A stretch of DNA of 64,000 bases from the IMG/VR virus record IMGVR_UViG_3300013126_000013; one strand, written 5' to 3'. Numbering within the stretch: the stretch's first letter is position 1; each line of letters begins with the position of its first letter. This stretch comes from a virus. Its lineage: Duplodnaviria; Heunggongvirae; Uroviricota; Caudoviricetes. This document shows positions 46,950 to 58,429 of the stretch, one piece after another. A model generated the notes under the pieces. The model did no database searches, was not told the origin of the DNA, and worked only from the letters and a program-made list of their open reading frames with translations. Made by a program: the position numbers and the translations under genes.

Positions 46950-47023
46950 TGGTGCTGAAGGAGAGAATCGAACTCTCATCGATGGGATACGAAGCCATTG
47001 TAATACCACTATACTACGTCAGC
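46950..47023 (-). tRNA. tRNA (probable Thr, anticodon CGU; one acceptor mismatch)
   Basis: T-arm GAGAGTTCGATTCTCTC, acceptor GCTGACG/CTTCAGC+A+CCA encoded. Confidence 0.45.
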
Positions 47024-47029
47024 ATGAAT

Positions 47030-47105
47030 TGGTGCTGCAAGAGGGAATCGAACCCCCGACCTGATGCTTACAAGGCAACTGCTCTACCGACTGAGCTACT
47101 ACAGC
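47030..47105 (-). tRNA. tRNA-Thr(UGU)
   Basis: cloverleaf: GCTGTAG..GCTCAGTCGGTAGAGC..loop CTTGTAA..GGGGGTTCGATTCCCTC..TTGCAGCACCA. Confidence 0.65.
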
Positions 47106-47112
47106 GTTATTT

Positions 47113-47185
47113 TGGAGCGGGTAGCCAGAATCGAACTGGTCTCCTACAGCTTGGAAGGCTGCCTGGCTACCATAGCCTTACCCGC
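47113..47185 (-). tRNA. tRNA-Gly(UCC)
   Basis: acceptor GCGGGTA/TACCCGC, anticodon loop CTTCCAA, T-loop TTCGATT, CCA encoded. Confidence 0.6.
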
Positions 47186-47263
47186 GTTATTCTTATTTAT
47201 ACTTCTCGCTCCGACCAGTCCATTTAGAGTTTGGACAAACTTGGGGCTAAAAAGCCACTCCAC

Positions 47264-47287
47264 CACCTGCTTTTACGAAAGCAGGAA
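47264..47287. other. perfect 8-bp hairpin (CCTGCTTT-TACG-AAAGCAGG)
   Basis: between HEG and tRNA-Gly; possible processing/termination structure. Confidence 0.3.
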
Positions 47288-47357
47288 AATTCGTCAGGAT
47301 CGTTTTGTCCGCTAAGACATCGAATATTATTTAGCGTTTTTGTTTGCTGAACCGATC

Positions 47358-47993
47358 CTATCTCTTACGACTTTTATACCATCCTTCTGGTATAATGTCA
47401 ACATCTTTTTTGATCTTCTTGTTCTCTTTACCGTCCGTTATCCACATCGTGCCGAACTGAGAATTTGAAGAACCAACATTCTTTGACTTACGCAACTTTT
47501 GTATCGTATCTTCTGAATGCTTCTTTCCTGTAAAGCCTCTACTGTTTTTGCCACCTAGAGAAGAATGAATTTTTCTTTTAGTTACAAAGTCATCATCTGT
47601 TTCCATAAGTCTTTTTATAACTCGTGCAGCTGCAGCAGATGCCTTTTTAGAAAAATTTGGATCTAACCTTCTTTGTTCATCTAAAGATACAGACTTTCCA
47701 CTCATGTTCAGATAACCAAATCCACCATTACCTCCTGGGCAAAGGTTGTAAGTGTCTTCTCTTAAGCAGAACTCTTCTGTTACCAACAGAGCTTCTTTAG
47801 CATTCATATCAGCTTCATTATCAAACTGGAAGAGAATTTCTTTCGTAAAGTTCTCGATTCCATGTTTGTTTTGAGCAGATTTTAGATGTTTACCAGAACC
47901 CATGTAACCATCATTCAAGTCTTTGGTCTGATGTTTTCCAATATAGATCTCGCCATTGATTAGGTTAGTGATCTTGTAGATTGTGTAGAACAT
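47358..47993 (-). mobile_element. GIY-YIG homing endonuclease gene (segB-like position in tRNA cluster)
   Basis: MFYTIYKITNLINGEIYIGKH GIY-YIG. Confidence 0.7.
47365..47404 (-). promoter_or_regulatory. phage promoter inside 3' end of HEG, driving tRNAs
   Basis: revcomp GTTGACATTATACCAGAAGGATGGTATAAA. Confidence 0.5.
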
Positions 47994-48048
47994 TGTTTGT
48001 ACTCATAGTTTTATGCCTTCGCTACTATTTATACAAACAATGTTCTCT

Positions 48049-48125
48049 GTGTCCGGATGGTGGGACTCGAACTCACGACCTACGGTACCCAAAACCGTCG
48101 CGCTACCAGACTGCGCTACACCCGG
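48049..48125 (-). tRNA. tRNA-Pro(UGG)
   Basis: CCGGGTG TA GCGC..loop TTTGGGT..TTCGAGT..CATCCGG A. Confidence 0.6.
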
Positions 48126-48243
48126 ATTATTCTTTGACGTACTCTCCCGTCTGAGTCACCTGGTGCCATCAGGTCAGAGTCAGTATAATCACCCAAACTA
48201 GTAATAGTCTTGCAGGGTTTTGGCGTATCTGACTACGCATATT

Positions 48244-48318
48244 TGGCAGGGGCCGTGGGAATTGAACCCACTTCTCAAGGTTTTGGAGACCTGCGGATTA
48301 CCACTTTCCTTGACCCCT
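48244..48318 (-). tRNA. tRNA-Trp(CCA)
   Basis: acceptor AGGGGTC/GGCCCCT, loop CTCCAAA, T-arm GTGGGTTCAATTCCCAC, CCA encoded. Confidence 0.55.
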
Positions 48319-48326
48319 ATAATCTT

Positions 48327-48402
48327 TGGCTCCCTGAGTAGGGCTTGAACCTACGACCCGCTGATTAACAGTCAGCTGCTCTACCAACTGAGCTATCAGG
48401 AA
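48327..48402 (-). tRNA. tRNA-Asn(GUU)
   Basis: GCTCAGTTGGTAGAGC D-arm, loop CTGTTAA, GTAGGTTCAAGCCCTAC. Confidence 0.65.
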
Positions 48403-48403
48403 T

Positions 48404-48800
48404 AAACTATTTGTCCATTGTACACCCGCAACGGACTAACGACTTGATAGGGTGACCCTCAGACTGAGTAGTTGAACTTCTGACATCTTTTAATGTTCAA
48501 CTTCTACGTGCCAACTCGTCTTCTCATGGTGTCGTCTTAACTTTATTCTCTGTTTTCAACGATACACCACCAAAGCGCTTGAAGCCCGAAGAGGTGGCAA
48601 CAGCTACTATGTCTACCCGCTTACATCTTTCGAATGGTGCACGTAGTGTATCTATGAAAACAGAGTACTCGTTATAACACTATTTATATTCGGGTCTTAC
48701 GGGTTTGTCCCTGCCCGATAATCAACTGGAACTTCTACCTTCATGATCTCGGATCGTCGTGGTTTTCTTGTTCCTTACTATTACAATCTATACTATTCTA
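48404..48800 (-). ncRNA. ~400-nt non-coding transcribed spacer (candidate small stable RNA(s))
   Basis: no ORF, no tRNA; lies between promoter at 48807 and tRNAs; near-repeats GTTGAACTTCT/GTTCAACTTCT. Confidence 0.3.
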
Positions 48801-48815
48801 CAGGAATGTCAACTA
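48775..48815 (-). promoter_or_regulatory. phage promoter (TTGACAT family) driving ncRNA/tRNA block
   Basis: CAATCTATACTATTCTACAGGAATGTCAACTAC. Confidence 0.6.
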
Positions 48816-49036
48816 CTATTTTTAGTTTTTCGCACTTTTTTCTTTTGATCTTGCATGAGGTGTAAATGCTTTTGATACAAGTGTTCTTCTTCTTGTTCTT
48901 CGCGAGTCTCGCGAATCGCTTTAATTGTTTTGATCAATTTACGATGCGCTCGAGCGACGAGTGATCGTTGGAATCGATCTTTACGAGAAGGTTTTTCGAA
49001 ATGGATTTCTACGTCTTCAGTAGTTACTTCAGTCAT
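48809..49036 (-). CDS. hypothetical Lys/Arg-rich protein (75 aa)
   Basis: GAGGTGAT RBS. Confidence 0.4.
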   Translation of the reverse strand: MTEVTTEDVEIHFEKPSRKDRFQRSLVARAHRKLIKTIKAIRETREEQEEEHLYQKHLHLMQDQKKKVRKTKNSS

Positions 49037-49059
49037 AACATCACCTCATTGTTGTTATA

Positions 49060-49147
49060 TGGCGGATGGAGGAGGAATCGAACCCCATAGGTTTCCCTAT
49101 GAACCGCTTTCCAGGCGGCCTCCCGCGCCAGCTAGGAGACTCCATCC
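49060..49147 (-). tRNA. tRNA-Ser(GGA), type II
   Basis: GGATGGA acceptor, loop CTGGAAA, long variable arm CATAGGGAAACCTATG, CCA encoded. Confidence 0.6.
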
Positions 49148-49171
49148 ATACTTTGAGGTTTGCTATATTTA

Positions 49172-49259
49172 TGGCAGAAGGTAGAAGCATCGAACTTCTG
49201 ACGAATTAACGTCACCCGGGCTTTCGAGACCCGTTGAGGAGCCAACCTCGGTACCTTCC
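49172..49259 (-). tRNA. tRNA-Ser(CGA), type II
   Basis: GGAAGGT/ACCTTCT acceptor, loop CTCGAAA, long variable arm, CCA encoded. Confidence 0.55.
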
Positions 49260-49263
49260 ATAT

Positions 49264-49353
49264 TGGCGGATACGGCAGGATTTGAACCTGCGGACCCCTT
49301 TCGGGATCGACGGTTTAGCAAACCGCTGGTTTAAGCCACTCACCCACGTATCC
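49264..49353 (-). tRNA. tRNA-Ser(GCU), type II
   Basis: GGATACG/CGTATCC acceptor, loop TTGCTAA, variable arm GATCCCGAAAGGGGTC, T-arm GCAGGTTCAAATCCTGC. Confidence 0.6.
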
Positions 49354-49357
49354 AATA

Positions 49358-49732
49358 TTATCCAGCAGATCGAGTAATGAAGTTCAATCTGATCTTTTCT
49401 GGGCTAAAGTACTTAGCGATAAGTTCTTCTGCAATCTTTACGTCAACAGTCTTGCACGAGAAGATGTCAATATATGCATCACCATTTGAGTCAACAAGAT
49501 GCCCAGAGATATTGCTTGTCTCGATCATCTGAATAAAGCTGATACCAGCCTTGTCAGGTGCATGTGTAGCAAAATGCTCGATCATTGGTTCGCCATATGC
49601 AATCATATCGATCGCTGGCACCAACTCTTTAATGAAGTTGTAAACGTTTTCTTTGCTTGTAATTTTGTCAATGTCACATGCGGCGCAGTCGAACATTGCG
49701 TGATAGCCCCAATAAGCCATAGTATCCTCCAT
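49358..49732 (-). CDS. speD: S-adenosylmethionine decarboxylase-like (SpeD class 1b, pyruvoyl-dependent) protein
   Basis: GYHAMFDCAACD and GISFIQMIETSNISGHL..IDIFSC parallel SpeH (HLVAEFYECD..VVVISESHLTIHTWPE..IDLFTCG). Confidence 0.5.
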   Translation of the reverse strand: MEDTMAYWGYHAMFDCAACDIDKITSKENVYNFIKELVPAIDMIAYGEPMIEHFATHAPDKAGISFIQMIETSNISGHLVDSNGDAYIDIFSCKTVDVKIAEELIAKYFSPEKIRLNFITRSAG

Positions 49733-49738
49733 TATTGT

Positions 49739-49815
49739 TGGTGCCCTTGGTGAGACTCGAACTCACACTTTCCGGAGTTTGAAGCCGGTGACTCTACCAA
49801 TTGGCCTACAAGGGC
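49739..49815 (-). tRNA. tRNA, type-I body with anticodon CAA (Leu codon UUG) - atypical
   Basis: acceptor GCCCTTG/CAAGGGC A CCA; D-arm GGCCAATTGGTAGAGTC; stem CCGGC/TCCGG, loop TTCAAAC; no long variable arm. Confidence 0.45.
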
Positions 49816-49816
49816 G

Positions 49817-50092
49817 TTATCTACGATTGTCTTTCAGTTGCTCGAGAACTCGTTTCGCCTTTTCACGAAACGCTGCATCAGTAACGGTATCAGAGTCAAC
49901 GTCATTGCGAAGAGTGTACTTGATGCCTTCGTACCGATACAGCGCTTCTTCCATCGCCGAAGCATGAAACTGAATCCGCTCAACTGTTGCTTTGAGCATC
50001 GAGAAATCGTACGTTTCTAACATCTTTCGAATAGTATCAAGTTCGGAACAAATGTAACGGTTCACATCAATTGTGTACGGTACTTTCGACAT
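49817..50092 (-). CDS. hypothetical protein (91 aa; start moved downstream of tRNA)
   Basis: GAGGATGAG RBS before MSKVPY. Confidence 0.4.
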   Translation of the reverse strand: MSKVPYTIDVNRYICSELDTIRKMLETYDFSMLKATVERIQFHASAMEEALYRYEGIKYTLRNDVDSDTVTDAAFREKAKRVLEQLKDNRR

Positions 50093-50117
50093 CTCATCCT
50101 CATTTTGATTTTGAATT

Positions 50118-50193
50118 GGTGCGGATAGAGGGACTCGAACCCCCAACATGCGCGTTCTAAGCGCGCCGACTCTACCAATTGGCCTATATCCGC
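50118..50193 (-). tRNA. tRNA, type-I body with anticodon UAG (Leu codon CUA) - atypical
   Basis: acceptor GCGGATA/TATCCGC A CCA; same D-arm as 49739..49815; perfect stem GCGCG/CGCGC, loop CTTAGAA. Confidence 0.5.
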
Positions 50194-50298
50194 GATATCT
50201 GGTCGGTTTTAAGTTATCCGAAAACTATCAACCCATACTATGCCCAAGCAGCTTGGAAGCCGGCTATCTATTCTCTGGTTGTCCGAACATTCGATCTT

Positions 50299-50374
50299 TG
50301 GTGCGGAATGAGAGGGTCGAACTCCCGACATCTTCGGTGTAAACGAAGCGCTACTACCACTGAGCTAATTCCGC
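50299..50374 (-). tRNA. tRNA-Val(UAC)
   Basis: GCGGAAT..loop TTTACAC..GGGAGTTCGACCCTCTC..ATTCCGC A CCA. Confidence 0.6.
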
Positions 50375-50538
50375 TTAAGTTTATTCCTCAAGTCATTCAG
50401 ACTTGTTTCTCTTTGCTGTGCTTCTACGTTAACCTTTGGTTCTTCGACATCATTATGAATGACTGCATTACCTTCAATTCGGCTTCGCAACTCAGCAATT
50501 CGTTTACGTAAAGAAGCAATTTCAGTTTGAAAATCCAT
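50365..50538 (-). CDS. small coiled-coil protein (57 aa)
   Basis: sub-threshold ORF, GGAGATG RBS; stop lies in tRNA-Val 5' end. Confidence 0.3.
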   Translation of the reverse strand: MDFQTEIASLRKRIAELRSRIEGNAVIHNDVEEPKVNVEAQQRETSLNDLRNKLKRN

Positions 50539-50552
50539 TGCATCTCCAATTT

Positions 50553-50626
50553 TGGCGACCTATGAGGGACTCGAACCCTCTTCACCCGGTGGACAGCCGA
50601 GCGTAATACCCATATACGAATAGGCC
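50553..50626 (-). tRNA. tRNA-Asp(GUC)
   Basis: GGCCTAT/ATAGGTC, loop CTGTCCA, GAGGGTTCGAGTCCCTC, CCA encoded. Confidence 0.55.
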
Positions 50627-50629
50627 AAT

Positions 50630-50669
50630 TCTTGTTTAATCTATACTATCTACTTGGTAGTGTCAACTA
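50630..50669 (-). promoter_or_regulatory. phage promoter (TTGACAT family)
   Basis: CTATACTATCTACTTGGTAGTGTCAACTAC. Confidence 0.5.
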
Positions 50670-50910
50670 CTTTTTTCAAGTAGTCGTAAGTTTCTTCATA
50701 AGTCTTAAAGACCTTCGTTCCATGCTTGCTCATGACTCTCACTGACGATCCAAAGCATTGAACACGTCCAAAACCTGGGTACCTACCGTTGCCAAGGAAT
50801 CGAGAGTTCCATCGGGTACGGCGACGTACAGGATCATGAAACAGATGAGGTATGCTAAGAATAGTGCTGCAATTTGCATAGAACTCTTCTTTCTCTTGAA
50901 TTGTTTTCAT
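50650..50910 (-). CDS. hypothetical protein (86 aa; start after tRNA)
   Basis: ORF; listed 110-aa ORF overlaps tRNA-Gly. Confidence 0.4.
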   Translation of the reverse strand: MKTIQEKEEFYANCSTILSIPHLFHDPVRRRTRWNSRFLGNGRYPGFGRVQCFGSSVRVMSKHGTKVFKTYEETYDYLKKVVDTTK

Positions 50911-50921
50911 ATTATACTTTC

Positions 50922-50996
50922 TGGAGCGGAGAATGGGGATCGAACCCACGACCATCTCGTTGGCAACGAGAAGCTCTACCACTGAGCTACCTCCGC
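50922..50996 (-). tRNA. tRNA-Gly(GCC)
   Basis: GCGGAGG TA GCTCAGTGGTAGAGC, loop TTGCCAA, GTGGGTTCGATCCCCAT, CCA encoded. Confidence 0.65.
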
Positions 50997-51002
50997 GTTA
51001 TT

Positions 51003-51041
51003 TGGTGGACCCTAGCGGGATCGAACCGCTAACTCCTAATT
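51003..51041 (-). pseudogene. tRNA 3' half (positions ~37-76 of a split tRNA-Ala-like gene)
   Basis: AATTAGGAGTTAGCGGTTCGATCCCGCTAGGGTCCACCA; acceptor 3' strand pairs with 5' half at 51668..51698 incl. G3:U70. Confidence 0.55.
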
Positions 51042-51617
51042 TATGGTGGAGGATAAGGGAGTCGAACCCTTGACTCTGCCTTGCAAGGGCAGCGTGTTCC
51101 CACTAGCACCAATCCCCCATTTGTCTTTTACTAATTCCTCAATCAAAGGAACTACTTCATTTGACCATTTACTATGAACCATTTCGTGATGATTTGGACA
51201 TAAGGGTATCAAATTTTTTGGTTCATTATTGTAATGATTTTCATCAATGTGATGAACCGCAACTACTTTATCAAATCCACAAATTGCACATTCACATTTC
51301 CAATTTTGAAATGCTATAGTTCTGTAGTGTGTAGCATTATCCTTCCACCATTCTTGCCTATTGTTTGCGCAAGACCTAGAGCAATAATACTTATCTTTCT
51401 GAGGATGAAGTTTTTCTCGTTCTGTTACTAAAAACTTATTAGAACAACATAAACATTCAACTTCAAATTCCTTTAATTCACCAAACTGACTAATAGTTCC
51501 TTGCGCTTTATTCCAATTATCCCTTTTAGGATTATGTTCACACCAACGACTATGATTAGCCTTTTCCGAAGTAGTTGAGAAATTAAACTCTATTTTGCAA
51601 TGTTTGCATTTCCACAT
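51036..51617 (-). mobile_element. HNH homing endonuclease gene with N-terminal Zn-finger
   Basis: CECAICGFDKVVAVHHIDENHYNNEPKNLIPLCPNHHEMVH; ORF 3' end reads through tRNA-Ala. Confidence 0.65.
51044..51118 (-). tRNA. tRNA-Ala(UGC) (intact; G3:U70)
   Basis: GGGGGAT..loop CTTGCAA..AAGGGTTCGACTCCCTT..ATCCTCC A CCA. Confidence 0.65.
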
Positions 51618-51667
51618 TCGAATTACCTCCTATTATGGAGTATTTATAATTCGCATATTTTCAGCAA

Positions 51668-51698
51668 ATCAGGCGCTCTCCCAACTGAGCTAAGAGCC
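51668..51698 (-). pseudogene. tRNA 5' half (acceptor + canonical D-arm + 5' anticodon stem) of split tRNA-Ala-like gene
   Basis: GGGCTCT TA GCTCAGTTGGGAGAGC G CCTGA TTTGC..; near-identical to E. coli tRNA-Ala(UGC) 5' half. Confidence 0.55.
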
Positions 51699-51702
51699 CG
51701 AA

Positions 51703-51725
51703 ACTATCTAGAGGGGACCTATTCC
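51703..51725. other. perfect 7-bp hairpin CTAGAGG-9nt-CCTCTAG beside split tRNA half
   Basis: inverted repeat in sequence. Confidence 0.3.
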
Positions 51726-51812
51726 TCTAGCAGGTAGATGATGCGTGATCGCCTCAACGAGTCAGGTCGAGAACTCTCAGCAGTGATCAGTGGGATCATC
51801 TACAATATTGGC

Positions 51813-51900
51813 AGAGAGCGGGTGGTATCGAACCCCAACCGGGTACTAGCCGGTCCACTAGTTTTCAAGACTAGGCTGCAGACCTCTGCAGATCACTCTC
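51813..51900 (-). tRNA. tRNA-Ser(UGA), type II (weak T-stem)
   Basis: GAGAGTG, D-stem CTGC/GCAG, perfect stem CTAGT/ACTAG loop CTTGAAA, long variable arm; CCA not encoded. Confidence 0.45.
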
Positions 51901-51908
51901 CATGGAAT

Positions 51909-51983
51909 TGGCACCAGTGGAAGGAATCGAACCCTCTACGCGCGGTTTTGGAGACCGCCGCTCTACCACTGAGCTACACCGAT
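51909..51983 (-). tRNA. tRNA-Trp(CCA), second copy
   Basis: ATCGGTG TA GCTCAGTGGTAGAGC, stem GCGGT/ACCGC loop CTCCAAA, GAGGGTTCGATTCCTTC, CCA encoded. Confidence 0.55.
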
Positions 51984-52051
51984 ATAAAATTTCAGCCGGT
52001 GAATTCTTTTGTACGTGCGGCCGGATCCGTCACAATTTCTGACTAAAGACA

Positions 52052-52124
52052 AAACTGTAATAGGGATCGAACCCATATCTCCCCGCCGTTCCGCAAGGCG
52101 TGCTATCCATTGCACCATACAGTC
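52052..52124 (-). tRNA. tRNA-like gene, anticodon arm non-canonical (8-nt loop or 6-bp stem); anticodon unresolved
   Basis: acceptor GACTGTA/TACAGTT, D-arm GTGCAATGGATAGCAC, T-arm ATGGGTTCGATCCCTAT. Confidence 0.35.
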
Positions 52125-52338
52125 TACTAGTTCGCTTTCTCGGCAAAGACTGCTACTGTAGTTCTCTAGTCAAGGCAATTGCCGCTGCCTATATAAATTC
52201 CTGGGCATCTCGCAATTGGGACTCTTACCCCTGCATCCAAGCTATGACTCAGACCGTGTTTCCCGATACGCCGAGTAGCCCTGTGGCGTATGTAGTGTTC
52301 TCATTGTAGTAGATGTCGACCTCTTCTACAACGTTTTA
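52125..52338 (-). ncRNA. ~210-nt non-coding spacer within tRNA cluster (candidate stable RNA)
   Basis: no ORF/tRNA; GGCAATTGCC palindrome. Confidence 0.25.
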
Positions 52339-52412
52339 TTGGTGCTCCTGGAATGAGTCGAACATTCGTAAGCAGGCTTCGTAGACCCGCCACCGGATCC
52401 GCCGGCAGAAGC
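52339..52412 (-). tRNA. tRNA-Arg(ACG)-like with compact D-region
   Basis: acceptor GCTTCTG/CAGGAGC A CCA, loop CTACGAA, perfect T-arm GAATGTTCGACTCATTC; D region CCGGCGGATCCGG. Confidence 0.45.
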
Positions 52413-52413
52413 G

Positions 52414-52719
52414 TTATGGCATATAAAGACCTTCGATCTGTGGATCAACAATCATTTCAGGCATGTCATCAATCCAAACATCGATATTAATCTTGTGAAC
52501 GTGAAGCATAAAGTCTCGTTTAGGGCGTAGGCCTGTTCCGAAGCAATTCTCAGCACCGATGATACGACCAATAGTATACTTGGGATCATCCATGTGTTGA
52601 ATGCCACGAGCAGATACACAGTAAACTTTATGTCCACGGTCAAGAGCTTGTTGTGCGAACCAATTCCACAACAGTGGATCTTTGGTGTAGGTGTCATCGT
52701 AGTCAATCGAGATATTCAT
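52414..52719 (-). CDS. hypothetical protein (101 aa; start after internal promoter)
   Basis: GAGGAG RBS before MNISIDYDD. Confidence 0.45.
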   Translation of the reverse strand: MNISIDYDDTYTKDPLLWNWFAQQALDRGHKVYCVSARGIQHMDDPKYTIGRIIGAENCFGTGLRPKRDFMLHVHKINIDVWIDDMPEMIVDPQIEGLYMP

Positions 52720-52724
52720 CTTTT

Positions 52725-52769
52725 TCTCCTCTACACCATCATAATCTAAACTGTTCCACATGTCAACCT
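52725..52769 (-). promoter_or_regulatory. phage promoter (TTGACA-17-TATGAT)
   Basis: revcomp GTTGACATGTGGAACAGTTTAGATTATGAT. Confidence 0.6.
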
Positions 52770-52774
52770 CTAAA

Positions 52775-52848
52775 TGGTGCTGCTAGAAAGAATCGAACTT
52801 TCTTCTCATCCGTACCAAGGACGTATAATACCAGTATACTATAGCAGC
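52775..52848 (-). tRNA. tRNA-Thr(GGU)
   Basis: GCTGCTA/TAGCAGC, loop TTGGTAC, AAAGTTCGATTCTTTC, CCA encoded. Confidence 0.6.
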
Positions 52849-52853
52849 GTTAT

Positions 52854-52927
52854 TGGTGTTCCCACCAGGAATCGAGCCTGGGCCTTCTCCGTGTCGAGGA
52901 GATGAGCTTCCATTACACCATGGGAAC
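52854..52927 (-). tRNA. tRNA (anticodon GAC, Val?) with irregular D-stem
   Basis: GTTCCCA/TGGGAAC A CCA, stem TCTCC/GGAGA loop TCGACAC, T-arm CCAGGCTCGATTCCTGG. Confidence 0.4.
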
Positions 52928-52932
52928 ATTGT

Positions 52933-53010
52933 TGGTGCGGCCACCGGGAATCGAACCCGGTTCTCAAGCTTGAGAGGCCGGCGACCATCGCCAAGTAGTC
53001 CTACGCGAGT
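52933..53010 (-). pseudogene. tRNA-like 3' fragment containing perfect palindrome TCTCAAGCTTGAGA
   Basis: good T-arm CCGGGTTCGATTCCCGG + TGGCCGC A CCA, but no complementary 5' acceptor strand. Confidence 0.4.
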
Positions 53011-53088
53011 TGGTACAGCGTACGGGTATCGAACCCGTCATCTCCGAATTGAAAGTACGGCGACCACCCCATCTAGTCCGACGCTGCA
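53011..53088 (-). tRNA. tRNA-Glu(UUC)
   Basis: GCAGCGT/ACGCTGT A CCA, loop CTTTCAA, ACGGGTTCGATACCCGT. Confidence 0.55.
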
Positions 53089-53146
53089 TAAATTTCAGGG
53101 GCATGATTGCTTTGAAATGCCGAAGCCCAGCGGCATTGGGGTTTAT

Positions 53147-53234
53147 TGGTGGGAGTGAAGGGAATCGAACCCAACATGCGTTACCGCGACAGATTTACAG
53201 TCTGCTGCCTCACCTTGAGGCGTCACTCCCAAAC
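53147..53234 (-). tRNA. tRNA-Tyr(GUA), type II
   Basis: GGGAGTG/CACTCCC A CCA, loop CTGTAAA, variable arm CGCGGTAACGCA. Confidence 0.55.
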
Positions 53235-53239
53235 TTGGT

Positions 53240-53310
53240 AGCGCCAGATGGACTCGAACCATCCCTACGGGCTTATGAGACCCATGTCAGCACCTGCTGT
53301 GTCGCCATAA
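53240..53310 (-). tRNA. tRNA-Met(CAU), initiator-like (GGG:CCC anticodon stem, acceptor mismatch)
   Basis: stem TGGGT/GCCCG, loop CTCATAA, GATGGTTCGAGTCCATC, TGGCGCT A CCA. Confidence 0.5.
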
Positions 53311-53316
53311 TTTGGT

Positions 53317-53390
53317 GTTCCTACAAGGTAACGATCCTTGGTCTCTCGCTTATCAGGCGAACGCTCTACCTTTGAGCTATAGGAACATGT
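53317..53390 (-). tRNA. tRNA-Ile(GAU)
   Basis: GTTCCTA TA GCTCAAAGGTAGAGC, loop CTGATAA, T-loop ATCGTTA, TAGGAAC A CCA. Confidence 0.6.
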
Positions 53391-53392
53391 TA

Positions 53393-53433
53393 ATCTAACA
53401 CTATACTAATTGAAGACGAATGTCAACAACTAT
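53393..53433 (-). promoter_or_regulatory. phage promoter (TTGACAT family)
   Basis: CACTATACTAATTGAAGACGAATGTCAACAAC. Confidence 0.55.
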
Positions 53434-53454
53434 TTTCATAGTACTTAATTTGGT

Positions 53455-53530
53455 GCACTTGGAGAGAATCGAACTCCCGACACCAGGATCTTCAATCCCG
53501 TGCTCTACCGTCTGAGCTACAAGTGCGTTA
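53455..53530 (-). tRNA. tRNA-Phe(GAA)
   Basis: GCACTTG TA GCTCAGACGGTAGAGC A CGGGA TTGAAGA TCCTG..GGGAGTTCGATTCTCTC CAAGTGC A CCA. Confidence 0.7.
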
Positions 53531-53535
53531 TTGGT

Positions 53536-53605
53536 CAGGATGGCGGGAATCGAACCCACGCCGGAAGCTTCCAAGGCCGCCACGCTACCACTACGCTACA
53601 TCCTG
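53536..53605 (-). pseudogene. tRNA-like gene with anticodon arm replaced by palindrome GGAAGCTTCC
   Basis: perfect acceptor CAGGATG/CATCCTG A CCA, D-arm and T-arm present; no 5-7-5 anticodon stem-loop can be drawn. Confidence 0.4.
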
Positions 53606-53680
53606 TTTATGAGTTTGGCTCTACCTCCTCGTAGGCGACTTAGCTACACTTCAAGTTTGCAGTACCGTGAATGTGTTTTG

Positions 53681-53760
53681 CTCGGTCGGCTGGGATCGAA
53701 CCAGCGCCATATTGGGTCTCCGGTTAACAGCCGGGCGCATTACCACTCTGCCACGACCGA
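53681..53760 (-). tRNA. tRNA (anticodon GUU?, extended variable region)
   Basis: perfect acceptor TCGGTCG/CGACCGA, loop CTGTTAA in CCGG stem, T-arm GCTGGTTCGATCCCAGC; CCA not encoded. Confidence 0.4.
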
Positions 53761-53777
53761 GCAAAACACACTTTATT

Positions 53778-53853
53778 TGGCTGCCCCTCGTGGACTCGAA
53801 CCACGGTTTCCTGTTTCAGAGACAGGCGTCCTACCGGCATAGACGAAGGGGCA
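53778..53853 (-). tRNA. tRNA-Gln(CUG)
   Basis: TGCCCCT/AGGGGCA G CCA, perfect stem CCTGT/ACAGG loop CTCTGAA, CGTGGTTCGAGTCCACG. Confidence 0.65.
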
Positions 53854-53860
53854 AAAGTAT

Positions 53861-53935
53861 TGGCTGGGAAGGGTGGATTCGAACCACCGGCCTGCTGATT
53901 CAAAGTCAGTTATTCTACCACTGAACTACTTCCCA
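53861..53935 (-). tRNA. tRNA-Gln(UUG)
   Basis: TGGGAAG/CTTCCCA G CCA, loop CTTTGAA, GGTGGTTCGAATCCACC. Confidence 0.65.
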
Positions 53936-53941
53936 ACATTT

Positions 53942-54016
53942 TGGTCCTGACGGTTGGTTACGATCCAACTCTACCGAGTCCACAGCTCAGCGTGCTACCA
54001 TTATCACTACATCAGG
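53942..54016 (-). tRNA. tRNA-His(GUG)
   Basis: CCTGATG/CGTCAGG A CCA, loop CTGTGGA, GTTGGATCGTAACCAAC. Confidence 0.55.
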
Positions 54017-54022
54017 ATATTC

Positions 54023-54097
54023 TGGTGTACCGGGTGGGGATCGAACCCACGACTTACGGATTAAGAGTCCGCCGTTCTACCGCTGAACTACCGGTGC
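54023..54097 (-). tRNA. tRNA-Lys(CUU)
   Basis: GTTCAGCGGTAGAAC D-arm, stem GCGGA/TCCGT loop CTCTTAA, GTGGGTTCGATCCCCAC, CCA encoded. Confidence 0.6.
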
Positions 54098-54201
54098 ATT
54101 ACTTAGAAGATACACTACAACGGATTCGCACCGTCTCCCCTTTCATTCCGCAGAAACCGCCTACTGACGCTTGGGTGCCTACTAGTGTATCATCAAAGTA
54201 A

Positions 54202-54240
54202 TGGTGAATCCGGTCAGACTCGAACTGACGTATTCCGATT
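54202..54240 (-). pseudogene. tRNA 3' half (T-arm + acceptor 3' strand + CCA) of a split tRNA
   Basis: TCGGA ATAC GTCAGTTCGAGTCTGAC CGGATTC A CCA; pairs 7/7 with 5' half at 55051..55088. Confidence 0.5.
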
Positions 54241-54245
54241 AATCT

Positions 54246-54329
54246 TGGTGAACGGGGTGAGATTCGAACTCACGAAGCTAGTGCGACTGATTAAAAGTCA
54301 GTTCCCTTTGTCCACTTGGGTACCCGTCC
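54246..54329 (-). tRNA. tRNA-Lys(UUU) (12-nt variable region)
   Basis: GGACGGG/CCCGTTC A CCA, perfect stem ACTGA/TCAGT loop CTTTTAA, GTGAGTTCGAATCTCAC. Confidence 0.55.
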
Positions 54330-55017
54330 GTATATCTTCCATTACAGAATCAATATAAGCTTTTCTATCTTGTTTGTCAACTAATTTTTTGTAGTCAGAC
54401 CATTTTATCCGTATTATTTTCCACCCAAGATTTTCAAGATATTGATTTCTTCTTTTGTCACTCTCTATAATGCGGTCATCTAAGTAATGTTGATCACCAT
54501 CTATTTCAATGTCAATCTTTTTTTCAACTAAAGCAAAGTCAAGTTGATAGGTGTGTATTTGATATTGCTCAACATAGTTTAAACTTACTTTATCAAAAAT
54601 TTTCTTCCAGTATCTTTCTGGATATGATAGGCCTTTGCTATAATGATTTAGTTTATATGGTACCATATCTGGGTTTTCAGAAAGAAATTTTCTCCTAGAA
54701 TTGGAAATTTTGTTTTTAGTTTCTTGGGTATGCTTTCGTCCGACATTAGCGTTACGCAATTTAATTATTGTTTGTTCAGATCTAATAGGTTTTGGTAAGC
54801 CTAATTTATTAGCTTTTGTATATTGGTTTTCACCCTTATATCCAGGTTTCCTACCAGATTTCGATTTAGGCTTAGGAAAGGGATTGCTTACACAACGATT
54901 TTCATGTGCTTTATTTGCACCAGGATTAGTAGTTTCTCTGCCACAAAATTGGCAAATAAATAGTTTCATGCTGGAAATCTCCGTTTGTGTTTCTAGAGTA
55001 GGTAGATGTTGGCGCAT
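54298..55017 (-). mobile_element. homing-endonuclease-like gene: N-terminal Zn-finger + C-terminal Vsr/DUF559-like (PD-(D/E)xK) nuclease domain
   Basis: CQFCGRETTNPGANKAHENRC; ..DFALVEKKIDIEIDGDQHYL..; 3' end overlaps tRNA-Lys(UUU). Confidence 0.5.
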
Positions 55018-55050
55018 CGTGACCTACATTATTATTTATACAAACAAAGA

Positions 55051-55088
55051 TTTTAGTCGGGTGCTAAAACCACCTCAGCTACGGATCC
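55051..55088 (-). pseudogene. tRNA 5' half of the split tRNA whose 3' half is 54202..54240
   Basis: GGATCCG TA GCTGAGGTGGTTTTAGC A CCCGA CTAAAA.. Confidence 0.5.
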
Positions 55089-55218
55089 ACTCTTTGCGAA
55101 GCGCCATCTTATCGTTACGGCGTTCCACTTTCTTAGTCTTTCCATGCGCACCAGAAGGACGTTTGGAAAGATGAAGGACGAAAGGATTTCGTGCCTTCGG
55201 GAGTTCCTTATGTTTCAT
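55078..55218 (-). CDS. small basic peptide (46 aa) directly after promoter; stop inside tRNA 5' half
   Basis: AGGAAAGGGAA RBS; MKHKELPKARNPFVLHLSKRPSGAHGKTKKVERR.. Confidence 0.3.
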
Positions 55219-55232
55219 TTCCCTTTCCTCGT

Positions 55233-55273
55233 TACTTACTCAGTTATAAACAGTCTTTTCAGAATGTCAACAA
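55233..55273 (-). promoter_or_regulatory. phage promoter (TTGACAT family)
   Basis: TTATAAACAGTCTTTTCAGAATGTCAACAAC. Confidence 0.55.
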
Positions 55274-55300
55274 CTATTTTCGTTTTCCATAAATATTTTT

Positions 55301-55789
55301 ATGAAATATCTTATTCTCATATTCGCCCTTGCCGGCTGTTCGAACAATATGTTCTTGAGCCGTGTCATACCACCAGTTGAGCCGGTAGATACTGCTGCAT
55401 CTATGATTGGCCTACATGAAAAAACCTCAAGAAAAGAGATTCGCAAATTCATAGGTCTCGACCCAGTTAGGTATCAATGGTGTGCAGCATTTGTCAACTC
55501 GGTACTTCACTATCATGATATTCCTGGGTCTGAAACCGTAAGCCGCCATCCGCTTCTTGCAAGAAGCTTTTTGAAGTGGGGTGAGCCGGTTCAAGAGCCA
55601 GAGTTCGGAGATATCGTAATATTTACTCGAAACAACAATAACTGGCAAGGTCACGTTGGTTTCTATATAGAGTCTGCTATCGTAGATGGTGTCCCAAGCT
55701 ACATTGTGTTAGGTGGAAACCAAGACGATGAGATTAAGTACAAAGCGTACCCAACATCAAGATTGCTTGGAATCCGAAGAATACCTTGA
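55301..55789 (+). CDS. NlpC/P60-like (TIGR02594-type) cysteine peptidase lipoprotein
   Basis: lipobox LAGC; YQWCAAFVNSVLH..GDIVIFTR..GHVGFY Cys/His motifs. Confidence 0.45.
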   Translation: MKYLILIFALAGCSNNMFLSRVIPPVEPVDTAASMIGLHEKTSRKEIRKFIGLDPVRYQWCAAFVNSVLHYHDIPGSETVSRHPLLARSFLKWGEPVQEPEFGDIVIFTRNNNNWQGHVGFYIESAIVDGVPSYIVLGGNQDDEIKYKAYPTSRLLGIRRIP

Positions 55790-55802
55790 TTCTGTTTTCA
55801 AC

Positions 55803-55882
55803 TGCACAATCACGAATCGAACGTGTTTTCTTGTCACTGACTATATAGTCCACTACCCAGTAGCTACAATGGGTTATTGTGC
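55803..55882 (-). pseudogene. tRNA-like gene with anticodon arm replaced by palindrome GACTATATAGTC
   Basis: perfect acceptor GCACAAT/ATTGTGC, D-stem CCCA/TGGG, T-arm CACGTTCGATTCGTG. Confidence 0.4.
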
Positions 55883-55991
55883 ATGTGAAAACAGAATCGC
55901 TTCTGTTTCCAGTTCCATCATCGGGCCTCCCCTAGGAACAAAGCTTAAATTTTCAATGAGCTGGGATGATTGATACGATCTCTTCGATCCC

Positions 55992-56031
55992 GAGTTTTTC
56001 TTCTATATTAGATCGACACGAATGTCAACCG
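55992..56031 (-). promoter_or_regulatory. phage promoter (TTGACAT family)
   Basis: TTCTATATTAGATCGACACGAATGTCAACCG. Confidence 0.55.
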
Positions 56032-56036
56032 TTATT

Positions 56037-56118
56037 TTGGAGGTGAGTGTCAGAATCGAACTGACTACTTGCGTGCTTCGGATTTGCAATCCGACCCCTT
56101 ACCATCCGGGCCACTCAC
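56037..56118 (-). tRNA. tRNA-Cys(GCA) (13-nt variable region)
   Basis: GGTGAGT/ACTCACC T CCA, perfect stem TCGGA/TCCGA loop TTGCAAA, GTCAGTTCGATTCTGAC. Confidence 0.55.
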
Positions 56119-56121
56119 CGA

Positions 56122-56165
56122 ATAAGAAACCCCTCCAGACCTTTCGATCGGAGGGGTTGGTTTTC
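56122..56165. terminator. GC-rich 9-bp hairpin with T-runs on both strands (bidirectional terminator-like)
   Basis: AACCCCTCC-13nt-GGAGGGGTTGGTTTTCTT. Confidence 0.4.
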
Positions 56166-56350
56166 TTGAACCATGTACTCTAGCTTGTTAGCTGTTGTAC
56201 CCCCTCATGTTCATAATATTAAGTTCTTCACAACGCACGGTAAAGCGATAGCCAGGCTGTGCCTGCATATGCTTTGAGACTGATGCGATAGTGGGTTTCA
56301 TTGAAGGATAGTTCCTGTTAGTTTGTTTCTTATACTATTTATACACTGAT
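56166..56350 (-). ncRNA. ~190-nt non-coding segment between promoter and hairpin (candidate small RNA)
   Basis: no ORF/tRNA; bounded by promoter 56360 and hairpin 56165. Confidence 0.3.
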
Positions 56351-56368
56351 TCTTGATGATGTCAACAA
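56328..56368 (-). promoter_or_regulatory. phage promoter (TTGACAT family)
   Basis: TTATACTATTTATACACTGATTCTTGATGATGTCAACAAAAAAG. Confidence 0.55.
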
Positions 56369-56393
56369 AAAAGTGTAAGTTTTTGAAAATAAT

Positions 56394-56834
56394 TTAGATG
56401 AAAGCTTTGAGCATCCAGCGGTGCTTTTCATGAGCAGCGATACGATCCTCGATGAAGTTCACAACACCTGCTTGTTCGAGTTGGTCTGCAATTGTACGAA
56501 CTTCATATAGCGTCGTAATGACTACATCATTATCGCGAGCAAGGCGAGCAAACATAAGAGGAGGTTCTGGAATCATAAGCTCATCTTCGATTCGGCTCAG
56601 CTCCTTGAAGCGAGACAACGAACCTGGAGCAAACGATCCTGCAATACGAATCATTTCTGCGATGTCGTCAATAGAACCGTCAACCTCTTCGTAGAAGTCA
56701 CCGAAGAACTCGTGGTACTGGGCAAAGTTTGGCCCAGTCACGTTCCAATGATAGTTCTGGGCTTTGATCGAAAGCCCATACACTGTTCCAAGTAGAACCT
56801 TCAATGCTTCTGCAATTTGATCCATGATACTCAT
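56394..56834 (-). CDS. dps: Dps-like ferritin-fold protein
   Basis: HWNVTGPNFAQYHEFFGDFYEEV..IAEMI ferroxidase-centre pattern. Confidence 0.7.
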   Translation of the reverse strand: MSIMDQIAEALKVLLGTVYGLSIKAQNYHWNVTGPNFAQYHEFFGDFYEEVDGSIDDIAEMIRIAGSFAPGSLSRFKELSRIEDELMIPEPPLMFARLARDNDVVITTLYEVRTIADQLEQAGVVNFIEDRIAAHEKHRWMLKAFI

Positions 56835-56865
56835 CCTTTGTTATTGTTCTTGAGTATTTATACTA

Positions 56866-56904
56866 TGGTGCTCCCGCAGGGATTCGAACCTACGATCAAG
56901 ACGG
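56866..56904 (-). pseudogene. tRNA 3' half (degenerate T-stem) of a split Cys(GCA)-like tRNA
   Basis: CGTCT TGATC GTAGGTTCGAATCCCTG CGGGAGC A CCA; pairs with 5' half 57547..57584. Confidence 0.5.
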
Positions 56905-56977
56905 TAGTTCCCCAGAGACTCGAACTCTGACCTGAAGCGTTATGAGCGCTTAGTGCTGACCTTTACACCAGAGAACC
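56905..56977 (-). tRNA. tRNA-Met(CAU) (elongator or Ile-lysidine type)
   Basis: GGTTCTC/GGGAACT A, perfect stem AAGCG/CGCTT loop CTCATAA, perfect T-arm CAGAGTTCGAGTCTCTG. Confidence 0.6.
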
Positions 56978-57490
56978 ACTTTTTTGTTTCTTCTTTCTCC
57001 AAATTTCGCGAAGATGCTCTTTACGTTCTTCTGAAAGTGGAGCACGTTTTTGGCCTTTGTTTGCCAACCCACCTTTGCGACCAACTTCTTTAGCAGATTC
57101 ACTGTTCCACACTTTTCCGGCTTTTACTGCACCAGCACCACCTGCCAATGAGCGTTTGTGCTGACCGTTTATATAACCTTTGTGTGCAGCTTCTTTGCTG
57201 AAACCACCGTGACCAGTTTCTTCTCGAAAGTTGGCCCACTCTTTAGATTCAACGATGTTGAAAAGTTTGCTAAAGAATATAGCAGTTTCTTTGAACTCGG
57301 CTTCATCTTCAGTAGCCAAAAGAATCTGAGTATCTAGGTTTAAGCCGTGTTCTTTCAGATGTCTTTTCCAATATAGACCTGATCCATTATAGCACATTGG
57401 GTCTCTTATGGTTTTGCCGAGATACTTTAATCCTGTCGTACGATGGGTTTTAACGTACAAATAAATAGTCATGCTGGAATTCCCTTTCAT
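56963..57490 (-). mobile_element. GIY-YIG homing endonuclease gene
   Basis: MTIYLYVKTHRTTGLKYLGKT GIY-YIG; 3' end overlaps tRNA-Met. Confidence 0.7.
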
Positions 57491-57546
57491 TCTAGAGTTA
57501 GTGGACGTTGGCCCGGCGCGACTAACACTATTTATATGATCAAGAA

Positions 57547-57584
57547 TTTGCAGCGCCCAGCTCTAACCGCTGAGCTACAGGAGC
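57547..57584 (-). pseudogene. tRNA 5' half (acceptor, canonical D-arm, anticodon stem + loop CTGCAAA) of split tRNA
   Basis: GCTCCTG TA GCTCAGCGGTTAGAGC T GGGCG CTGCAAA. Confidence 0.5.
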
Positions 57585-57684
57585 AGATTGGTAGAAGTGC
57601 TGGGTTACGCTCCCAGTCGAGAACAGTCATCTACTGCTGAAGGGTTTATAAGGCCCTCTTGCGTCTAACGCCCACTTCCATAAT

Positions 57685-57729
57685 TGGTGTCCCCGGTCGG
57701 ACTCGAACCGACACTGAGATGTAAAATTA
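57685..57729 (-). pseudogene. tRNA 3' fragment (T-arm + acceptor 3' strand + CCA)
   Basis: GTCGGTTCGAGTCCGAC CGGGGAC A CCA with no local 5' strand; possible partner 5' half at 59189..59226. Confidence 0.4.
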
Positions 57730-57737
57730 TATAAATA

Positions 57738-57820
57738 GTGGTAGGCATGGTCGGACTCGAACCGACACGGATTAACCAGCGAATTTTAAGTCCGCCGCGG
57801 CTACCATTTCGCCACACGCC
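57738..57820 (-). tRNA. tRNA-Leu(UAA), type II
   Basis: GGGCGTG/CATGCCT A CCA, stem GCGGA/TTCGC loop CTTAAAA, variable arm TGGTTAATCCG, GTCGGTTCGAGTCCGAC. Confidence 0.55.
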
Positions 57821-57835
57821 CATGGAGATATTTAT

Positions 57836-58429
57836 ATGATTCCTAAGAAAATACTAACACAGTTCAAACTAACTGTCAACTATAATTGTTCAAAATGTAA
57901 TATTTCTTCTTGGTTAGAAAATAAGATTACATTAGAAGTTGACCACATTGATGGTGACAACACTAATCATAGCTTATCAAATCTAAGATATCTTTGCCCG
58001 AATTGTCACAGCCAGACAGATACGTGGAGAGGTCGAAACAAAAATACTGGAAAGGTAAAAGTTTCGGATGAAGAACTATTGAGTGCTATTCATGAAACTG
58101 CAAATATAAGACAGGCTCTCATTAAAGTAGGATTGTCTCCTAGAGGACCAAACTATAACAGAGTTTCAAAGTTGTTAAATACATATGAAATAGACTTCAA
58201 AAATTCTCAATATAATACTGTTTGGATAAATGATGGAACACTCAACAAAAAAGTTAAACATGAAGTATTAAATGAATATTTAGCTACTGGATATAAGATT
58301 GGTAGAATTGGAATTACTCAACCATCAGTTAAAGGAAAGGTATGGGTAACTAATGGAATTATTAATAAAATGTGCAACCCAGACTCTATTCCAGATGGAT
58401 TTTGGAGAGGAAAATTCCACAGAAATTAA
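57836..58429 (+). mobile_element. HNH homing endonuclease gene
   Basis: LEVDHIDGDNTNHSLSNLRYLCPNCHSQTD HNH motif; plus strand. Confidence 0.65.

Follow-up and report, generated by a model that had tools for sequence, protein, structure and literature searches.

A putative homing-endonuclease cassette carrying its own tRNA-Met inside a split tRNA-Met(CAU) gene of a T4-like phage tRNA array

Homing endonucleases usually spare their host by being hidden in self-splicing introns or inteins or by lying between genes. The mobE gene reportedly splits nrdA in Aeromonas phage Aeh1, both pieces of which stay functional as separate subunits. Integrase-driven islands and prophages use tyrosine integrases to insert in tRNA genes, where they duplicate a 3′ segment and rebuild the same gene, and synthetic ‘home-and-rescue’ or ‘cleave-and-rescue’ gene drives are engineered Cas9 systems that operate in animals. 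The closest characterised system to the locus reported here is SegB of phage T4, a GIY-YIG homing endonuclease encoded in a tRNA cluster, which cuts tRNA genes and drives co-inheritance with neighbouring tRNAs (PMC2330249). A broad association of segB with tRNA genes, together with segB-tRNA microhomology, was reported in 2026 (PMC13096335). Here we analyse a 64,000-nucleotide stretch of viral DNA (Caudoviricetes, IMG/VR record IMGVR_UViG_3300013126_000013), hereafter called the window, in which a nuclease gene and an intact tRNA-Met(CAU) gene are nested within a second, split tRNA gene. This arrangement is probably a homing-endonuclease cassette with its own rescue tRNA, located inside the anticodon loop of the resident tRNA-Met(CAU), and it extends the known free-standing homing endonucleases of phage tRNA clusters. 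The resident split tRNA-Met(CAU) is called S-type below, and the divergent tRNA-Met(CAU) carried by the cassette R-type.

By protein similarity the window phage is an uncultured T4-like myovirus, with only about 30% identity to cyanomyoviruses, and its minus strand carries at 46950-57821 an array of 33 tRNAs called by ARAGORN, with nuclease-like open reading frames (ORFs) interspersed. Related viral and metagenome contigs or loci that were compared with the window are designated by L-numbers. Relatives were retrieved with the ferritin-like gene located just downstream of the split tRNA (56394-56834) as an anchor, and the informative ones came from exact-protein look-ups and DNA patterns. A megablast search of sequenced phages with the region returned zero matches, indicating that a cultured relative is absent, and a search of IMG/VR with the nuclease protein yielded only distant homologues without tRNAs nearby. 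Scanning metagenomes with a 17-mer from the untranslated region (UTR) of the cassette gave 93 loci, the nuclease being present in only 3 of them. L160, L125 and L136 entered the comparison by metagenome scanning.

Comparison of empty and occupied sites identifies the disrupted gene. The gene order in the relatives is tRNA-Arg(TCT), tRNA-Leu(TAA), tRNA-Met(CAT), ferritin-like gene and tRNA-Cys, and in L001-L005, L081 and L082 the site is empty, an intact tRNA-Met lying between tRNA-Leu(TAA) and the ferritin-like gene. L001 and L002 are 96% identical to the window up to position 57552 and 88% identical from position 56890, and the interval between these points spans 18 nt in the relatives versus 661 nt in the window. 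The first 25 nt of the 5′ piece, used as a query, matched at the start of this tRNA-Met in three contigs; the orthologous intact genes all have a CAT anticodon; and the joined halves are identical to allele A of the intact tRNA-Met(CAU) at 69 of 76 positions, versus 47 of 82 for the window's own tRNA-Cys. The alignment and these identities thus indicate that the disrupted gene is an S-type tRNA-Met(CAU) interrupted by an insert of about 650 bp. A preliminary description of the locus had taken it for a Cys(GCA)-like gene and had proposed that, unlike in a similar tRNA-Ala case in the same array, the cassette tRNA differs in identity from the tRNA it disrupts. The identities and the CAT anticodon of the intact orthologues rule out the Cys assignment, and the cassette tRNA and the tRNA that it disrupts are both Met with a CAU anticodon, so that the locus behaves as the Ala case does. 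The correction strengthens the general pattern, because the cassette tRNA shares its anticodon with the gene that it splits. The ‘GCA’ triplet is a junction scar that makes a spurious anticodon; related cassettes read GTA, GTG or CAT there. The architecture first described was right and the observation is real and reproducible: each of its literal features can be read on the minus strand, the two pieces form one tRNA gene that is interrupted within its anticodon loop by a nuclease gene and an intact tRNA-Met, and homologous phages carry at this position an uninterrupted gene of matching sequence rather than an unrelated one.

When the halves are joined, the acceptor stem read directly from the sequence pairs 7/7 with one G-U, all 5/5 pairs form in the anticodon stem GGGCG/CGTCT (two of them G-U), and only 2/5 form in the T stem GTAGG/CCCTG, in agreement with the pairing initially noted. 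The last 25 nt of the 3′ piece are identical (25/25) to the intact tRNA-Met of L001, L002 and L003, and this match together with that of the 5′ piece to intact syntenic genes (Table 1) places the resemblance to a split tRNA far beyond chance. Homology with the intact alleles ends after position 33 (CT), from where the window reads GCAAA and unrelated sequence versus CATAA-CGCCT in the alleles; the scar site of related cassettes reads GCAAA, GTAAA, GTGAA or (C)CATAA. The break lies within the anticodon loop, as had been proposed, and its placement at the 3′ edge of the loop is only one possible reading, since homology stops after position 33. The ancestral insertion may have generated a short duplication of positions 34-38, the 3′ pieces of L114 and L103 starting with (C)ATAACG. 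The octamer TCTTGATC is present 8/8 at both junctions of the Met cassette (57545-57538 and 56901-56894); we did not adopt it as a target-site duplication, given that it is matched at only about 6/8 positions in L094 and that a third copy occurs elsewhere in the window (59693-59686).

The insert contains, in this order, TATAAATA, a 5′ UTR hairpin, the nuclease ORF and the R-type tRNA-Met(CAU). TATAAATA is the T4 late-promoter consensus and marks a putative promoter; the same octamer is also found upstream of the other nuclease ORFs and of the ferritin-like gene. RNAalifold applied to four cassettes predicts 13 pairs in the hairpin, one of them with a compensatory change. The R-type tRNA scores 54.8 bits against Rfam RF00005 (gathering threshold 29), is called tRNA-Met(cat) by ARAGORN, and overlaps (56977-56903/5) the last 13-15 nt of the nuclease ORF, whose TAA stop codon (56965-56963) falls inside the D loop of the tRNA. 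Only 52 of 76 positions are identical between the R-type tRNA and the joined S-type halves. The R-type tRNA also follows the nuclease in L094-L103 and L125, and it is nearly invariant across cassettes whose nucleases share just 61-93% identity.

The nuclease ORF as called spans 57490-56963 and has 488 homologues. Homologues begin at the second ATG (57472). The protein matches phrog_314, annotated as ‘homing endonuclease’ (E = 4.5e-6), and is predicted to adopt a GIY-YIG fold. This assignment, made in the preliminary description, is borne out by fold comparison: in an AlphaFold2 (AF2) model, residues 1-78, which form the N-terminal domain, have a predicted local distance difference test (pLDDT) value above 90, and the top 3 Foldseek matches in the PDB are the I-TevI catalytic domain (1mk0, 1ln0), with a probability of 1.00, target template-modelling (TM) scores of 0.61-0.64 and E values of 6e-3 to 3e-2. 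Sequence profiles do not lend such support, as neither the nuclease nor any of 31 homologues matches the Pfam GIY-YIG or SegE models, a Pfam search with the nuclease was empty even at E <= 10, and so was a sequence-profile search of the PDB. Pairwise BLASTP with the SegE-like GIY-YIG protein of the window gave E = 3e-4. The motifs IYLY and YLGKT are present, and residues Y12, Y23, G25, N87 and E91 are invariant across the 31 homologues, 17 of which contain NUMOD3 and 2 the I-TevI DNA-binding domain. Pairwise ratios of nonsynonymous to synonymous substitution rates (dN/dS) among five cassette copies range from 0.05 to 0.29, indicating that the protein is maintained by purifying selection. In sequenced phages, tblastn detected only distant copies, with 39-44% identity across half the protein, in six Vibrio phages; in the two looked at more closely (SRILMA and D486), the copy is free-standing and flanked by replication genes, and no tRNA is annotated less than 1.5 kb away.

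The poorly paired T stem had initially been regarded as decay of an inactivated remnant. Informative sites tell a different story, in that two natural alleles are joined within the split gene (Table 1): the two strands of the T stem come from different alleles, with a crossover in the conserved T loop, so that the 2/5 pairing marks a recombinant join. As judged from these sites, the mosaic looks like a co-conversion tract beside a homing site. More generally, damage to the remnants adjoins the junction: it affects the anticodon and the variable loop, and one strand each of the anticodon stem (3′) and the T stem (5′). The distal parts are identical to functional alleles. We read this distribution as the probable outcome of repeated homing into intact alleles.

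Table 1. Features of the Met cassette, allelic origin of the split tRNA-Met segments, and breakpoints of the other cassettes of the window.
Feature	Coordinates	Strand	tRNA positions	Details
5′ piece	57584-57547	minus		reads GCTCCTG TA GCTCAGCGGTTAGAGC T GGGCG CTGCAAA
S-type tRNA-Met(CAU) 5′ fragment	57552..57584	minus	1-33	33/33 identity to the intact L003, L081 and L082 genes at the syntenic site
Junction scar	57547..57551	minus		GCAAA replacing CATAA (anticodon and positions 37-38); intact alleles CT-CATAA-CG
TATAAATA, putative late promoter at the cassette 5′ end	57529..57536	minus		octamer match
Conserved 5′ UTR hairpin, between promoter and ribosome-binding site	57493..57530	minus		RNAalifold
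Homing-endonuclease ORF, predicted GIY-YIG-fold N-terminal domain	56963..57472	minus		169 aa from the second ATG (57472); 175 aa if from 57490
Intact R-type tRNA-Met(CAU)	56905..56977	minus		ARAGORN, Rfam; followed by CC at 56904-56903
S-type 3′ fragment, two-allele mosaic	56866..56903	minus	39-76 + CCA	38 nt, reads CGTCTTGATCGTAGGTTCGAATCCCTGCGGGAGCACCA
Split tRNA-Met, segment 1			1-29	allele A (L081 type), 8/8 informative sites
Split tRNA-Met, segment 2			41-51	allele C/D (L004/L005 type, also halves in L094), 6/6 informative sites
Split tRNA-Met, segment 3			59-66	allele A, 5/5 informative sites
Lys cassette				5′ piece ends at position 33; 3′ piece starts at position 35
Ala cassette				5′ piece ends at position 36; 3′ piece starts at position 37
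Arg/Leu composite				5′ piece ends at position 33 (Arg); 3′ piece starts at about position 39 (Leu)

The cassette is polymorphic for presence and absence, the syntenic site being occupied in the window, L160, L100 and L125 and empty in the relatives named above. Nuclease homologues of 93%, 81% and 61% identity in L094-L100 and L103-L106 show the same nested order of 5′ piece, promoter and UTR, nuclease, R-type tRNA over the stop codon, and 3′ piece; the S-type pieces in those loci belong to differing alleles, and the neighbouring genes differ too. Altogether the nested layout is found with nucleases 93%, 89%, 81% and 61% identical, in several genomic contexts and in at least four S-type backgrounds, namely the alleles D and A, one with A1-U72, and a fourth. 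L125 combines an allele-A 5′ piece and the 89% nuclease with a shortened 3′ piece. In L101 and L102 (66% homologue), which have a non-tRNA neighbourhood, the 5′ piece, nuclease and tRNA are kept and the 3′ piece is absent. L136 has an allele-A 5′ piece and the same UTR, followed by a different, longer nuclease (about 60% identical) without a tRNA. Among the loci compared, no intact S-type gene was found at a nuclease-bearing locus, a pattern of mutual exclusion.

Turnover of the two tRNA types is also visible at loci where the nuclease is absent or of another kind. L109, L111, L113 and L115 have an R-type gene as their resident tRNA-Met in the syntenic position, without nuclease or halves, which indicates that S-type and R-type behave as two natural alleles. 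In L114 (8555-8700), 16 nt of the S-type 5′ end are joined via a 7-nt AGTGGTT microhomology to the R-type tRNA, the nuclease having been lost, and the 3′ remnant still begins with the CAT anticodon (CATAACGCC). L108, L110 (2260-2836) and L112 carry a different SegE-like GIY-YIG gene upstream of the same R-type tRNA-Met; this gene, a homologue of window 47358-47993, has the same tRNA-encoded GSLV* ending, and in these loci the S-type 3′ remnant is kept and the 5′ piece is absent.

From these comparisons we infer the following route, each step of which is proposed on sequence grounds. During mixed infection, the endonuclease would cut the S-type tRNA-Met gene that is still intact in a phage lacking the cassette. 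Repair of the break would copy the cassette-bearing genome, with homology arms provided by the tRNA pieces and the DNA outside them, and the recipient would gain the nuclease gene and the R-type tRNA together. The R-type tRNA, presumably spared from cutting itself, would then take over the function of the destroyed gene and keep CAU decoding, which would make splicing unnecessary, and the two S-type pieces would be non-functional leftovers. According to this proposal, every round of homing would derive the pieces anew from a functional allele, which would keep them pristine at a distance from the junction; near it, co-conversion of donor sequence would leave them decayed or mosaic.

Several observations weigh against a cassette of this kind. 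S-type and R-type tRNAs have an identical 13-nt anticodon stem-loop (GCGCTCATAACGC), which would leave self-immunity unexplained if the cut or recognition site lies there. Both tRNAs may be elongator Met, or one of them may be an Ile2-type CAU tRNA. The 5′ piece is identical at 33/33 positions in the window, L125 and L136 within surrounding DNA that is only about 80% identical, a conservation with a neutral expectation of 0.8^33, or about 6e-4, by our own arithmetic; repeated homing can explain it, and so could a function of the 5′ piece. Rescue is not obligatory, as L101 lacks the 3′ piece and L136 any tRNA. Finally, breaks in the anticodon loop in four window cassettes with unrelated nucleases (Table 1) seem poorly explained by independent target specificities.

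The conservation of the 5′ piece raises the alternative that it is kept for the benefit of the cassette, either as a nuclease binding site next to the late promoter that allows autorepression or as an element of RNA processing or stability. I-TevI is autoregulated in this manner, repressing at its own promoter. The 5′ piece ends 15 nt upstream of TATAAATA, remains perfectly conserved despite diverged nucleases and flanks, and stays with this nuclease family in loci that lack the 3′ piece or the tRNA (L101, L136). However, different lineages carry pieces of different alleles, which follow the intact alleles found locally, as repeated homing predicts, and the loci with the other nuclease (L108, L110 and L112) lack the 5′ piece, of which L114 retains just 16 nt. 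We consider this explanation unlikely; a function of the 5′ piece can in any case coexist with homing and rescue.

It is rather improbable that the nuclease is a mere passenger and that the nesting arose by nuclease-independent illegitimate recombination among tRNA genes, for example through a break or a template switch at the hairpin of the anticodon stem, with ordinary vertical inheritance and recombination thereafter. The anticodon-loop breaks common to the four cassettes hint at a shared hotspot of this sort, and L109 contains a full tRNA of the UAU type described below followed by the 3′ remnant of another allele, in a vicinity free of nuclease genes. Against this stand the presence, in each nested case of the window, of a nuclease ORF under its own putative late promoter, the strong purifying selection on the nuclease, and the occurrence of the cassette in several allele backgrounds and contexts. 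A tandem duplication of S-type and R-type genes was rejected as an origin because the nested order is not obtainable from it directly: such an ancestor would yield an S-type 5′ piece, nuclease, R-type tRNA and S-type 3′ piece only via two separate deletions.

We regard as very improbable that the split tRNA is still functional, with the insert acting as an intron or the halves being joined as RNA to give a GCA or CAU anticodon. Bacterial group I introns typically lie in tRNA anticodon loops (PMC3984707), the 7/7 acceptor stem fits a functional split tRNA, and ARAGORN calls the joined halves tRNA-Cys(gca). Yet ARAGORN is a permissive caller, and cassettes differ in the triplet (GCA, GTA, GTG, CAT). 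Rfam searches for intron and ribozyme families gave zero matches at E <= 1 over 13 kb and at E <= 10 over the isolated 901 nt, and the 61-79 nt outside the ORF and the tRNA are too few for a ribozyme core (P3-P9); on these results we reject an intron. The joined halves, which read GCA, are unable to restore CAU, the T stem pairs at 2/5 in both the window and L103, L094 and L100 have an anticodon stem with a degraded 3′ strand, and the 3′ half is shortened in L125 and missing in L101 and L136. The variable anticodon, the lineage-specific broken stems and the absence of the 3′ half in L101 and L136 likewise argue against a split tRNA of the Nanoarchaeum type. An assembly chimera, conceivable for a metagenome-derived sequence within a repetitive tRNA array, has a negligible probability: L160, an independent assembly, is 99.98% identical to the window across 4,651 bp including the whole split structure, which excludes an artefact, and the layout recurs in >10 other contigs from different samples and sources.

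Other parts of the array show comparable arrangements. In a second nested cassette at 55088-54202 (minus strand), a tRNA-Lys(TTT) 5′ piece (55088-55055) matches relatives through position 33 and is followed by TATAAATA and an ORF (55017-54298; DUF559/REase_MTES_1575 and NUMOD3) that extends 32 nt into an intact 84-nt tRNA-Lys(TTT) (54329-54246); 31 nt of the 3′ piece (54242-54202) are 100% identical to L002 tRNA-Lys. The third, at 51699-51003 (minus strand), consists of a tRNA-Ala(TGC) 5′ piece (51699-51664), TATAAATA, an HNH ORF (51617-51036) whose frame runs across the entire internal tRNA-Ala(TGC) (51118-51044), and a 3′ piece (51041-51003); its pieces pair 7/7 in the acceptor stem, including G3-U70. 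A composite arrangement at 59226-57685 begins with a tRNA-Arg(TCT) 5′ piece (59226-59193) broken after position 33 and followed by TATAAATA, continues with an endonuclease-like ORF (59117-58455, minus strand), an HNH ORF (57836-58429, plus strand) and an 83-nt tRNA-Leu(TAA) (57821-57739), and ends with a 3′ piece (57720-57685) derived from the 76-nt tRNA-Leu(TAA) of the relatives, to which it is 100% identical across 31 nt. Since the Arg and Leu genes are adjacent in the relatives, the insert replaced the 3′ half of the former and the 5′ half of the latter; no tRNA-Arg was found by ARAGORN anywhere in the window.

The array also contains several unusual tRNA-like genes. A gene of 91-94 nt at 57679-57589 (minus strand) combines a long variable arm with a loop that reads CTTATAA (anticodon UAU), and copies occur in L004 (5049-5139), L094 (2795-2885), L100 (2550-2643) and L109 (5635-5728). 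Its acceptor, variable arm and T arm covary in relatives, with compensatory changes at 11/16 pairs, and two allelic types are distinguished; the window copy has an aberrant T loop, AGCGTAA, and neither ARAGORN nor Rfam picked it up. L109, L111 and L115 each have a complete type-2 copy with a type-1 3′ remnant behind it, without a nearby nuclease. The segment 51812-51902 (minus strand) matches Rfam tRNA-Sec with 50.6 bits (gathering score 47) and received no ARAGORN call; it may be a class II tRNA-Ser(UGA), its loop reading CT-TGA-AA by eye, rather than a UCA tRNA. At 52051-52125 (minus strand), ARAGORN reports a ‘tRNA-???’ with a four-base anticodon (gaac) and Rfam a tRNA with 41.2 bits, which could represent an 8-nt anticodon loop or a damaged tRNA. 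Adjoining tRNA-Glu(TTC), an unannotated and apparently truncated or degenerate tRNA-Glu(CTC) of 59 nt (52951-53009, minus strand) is 91.5% identical to positions 1-59 of the L003 gene.

The four cassette nucleases of the window are of four types: GIY-YIG-fold, HNH, DUF559/Vsr-like and a further endonuclease-like ORF. Whether they belong to a previously unrecognised class of mobile elements, ‘home-and-rescue’ cassettes in which a nuclease and a same-anticodon tRNA sit within the anticodon loop of the tRNA gene that they destroy, assembled independently around at least four unrelated nucleases in one array, is in our judgement evenly balanced. Literature searches returned no description of a nuclease and tRNA unit nested in a same-anticodon tRNA gene, or of a phage tRNA split by a homing endonuclease. 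If such a class exists, the cassettes would drive tRNA allele replacement in phages, possibly spreading variants that escape host tRNA-targeting defences, and the shared breakpoint at or after U33 would reflect one common mechanism. The Met cassette itself would give homing endonucleases a third way of sparing their host, that of destroying the target gene and bringing a diverged spare, which is the logic of an engineered drive operating in nature. It would also offer a concrete mechanism by which tRNA genes turn over quickly and alleles are replaced in large phage arrays; such turnover bears on current work on tRNAs with which phages counter bacterial defences that cleave tRNA (PMC13096335). 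In annotation, orphan tRNA halves around a nuclease and tRNA unit should not be taken for novel split or intron-containing tRNAs, and apparent anticodons can be scars.

Like T4 SegB, the window cassette places a GIY-YIG-fold nuclease gene in the tRNA array of a T4-like phage with tRNA genes as its likely target, the nuclease and neighbouring tRNAs are inherited together, and the 3′ end of the nuclease gene abuts or overlaps the 5′ end of a tRNA. The window nuclease is not a close homologue of SegB, however, and whereas SegB lies between intact tRNA genes and recognises a T-psi-C motif, the nuclease and tRNA studied here lie inside a tRNA of the same anticodon, whose halves flank them. Insertion into an anticodon loop (PMC3984707), an I-TevI-like catalytic fold, a late promoter and 5′ UTR hairpin before the nuclease ORF, and host-gene flanks that would act as homology arms are shared with group I introns that carry homing endonucleases, such as that encoding I-TevI in the td gene of T4. 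Unlike these introns, the cassette has no ribozyme, and function would be preserved by a second tRNA gene while the interrupted gene is dead. As with mobE and nrdA, the gene that a free-standing nuclease has entered in a T4-like phage was functional, and neither intron nor intein is involved; here the gene pieces appear inert, and the nuclease brings along a whole gene as a substitute. Integrase-driven islands resemble the cassette in targeting tRNA genes, often at the anticodon loop, and in supplying tRNA sequence that preserves function; they differ in that the cassette has no integrase and supplies a whole different tRNA gene, the old gene staying split. The likeness to synthetic home-and-rescue drives lies in a nuclease element that breaks up a useful gene and brings a rescue copy of diverged sequence, although the element described here is a natural, protein-guided phage element, in which the resistance of the rescue copy to cutting is putative.

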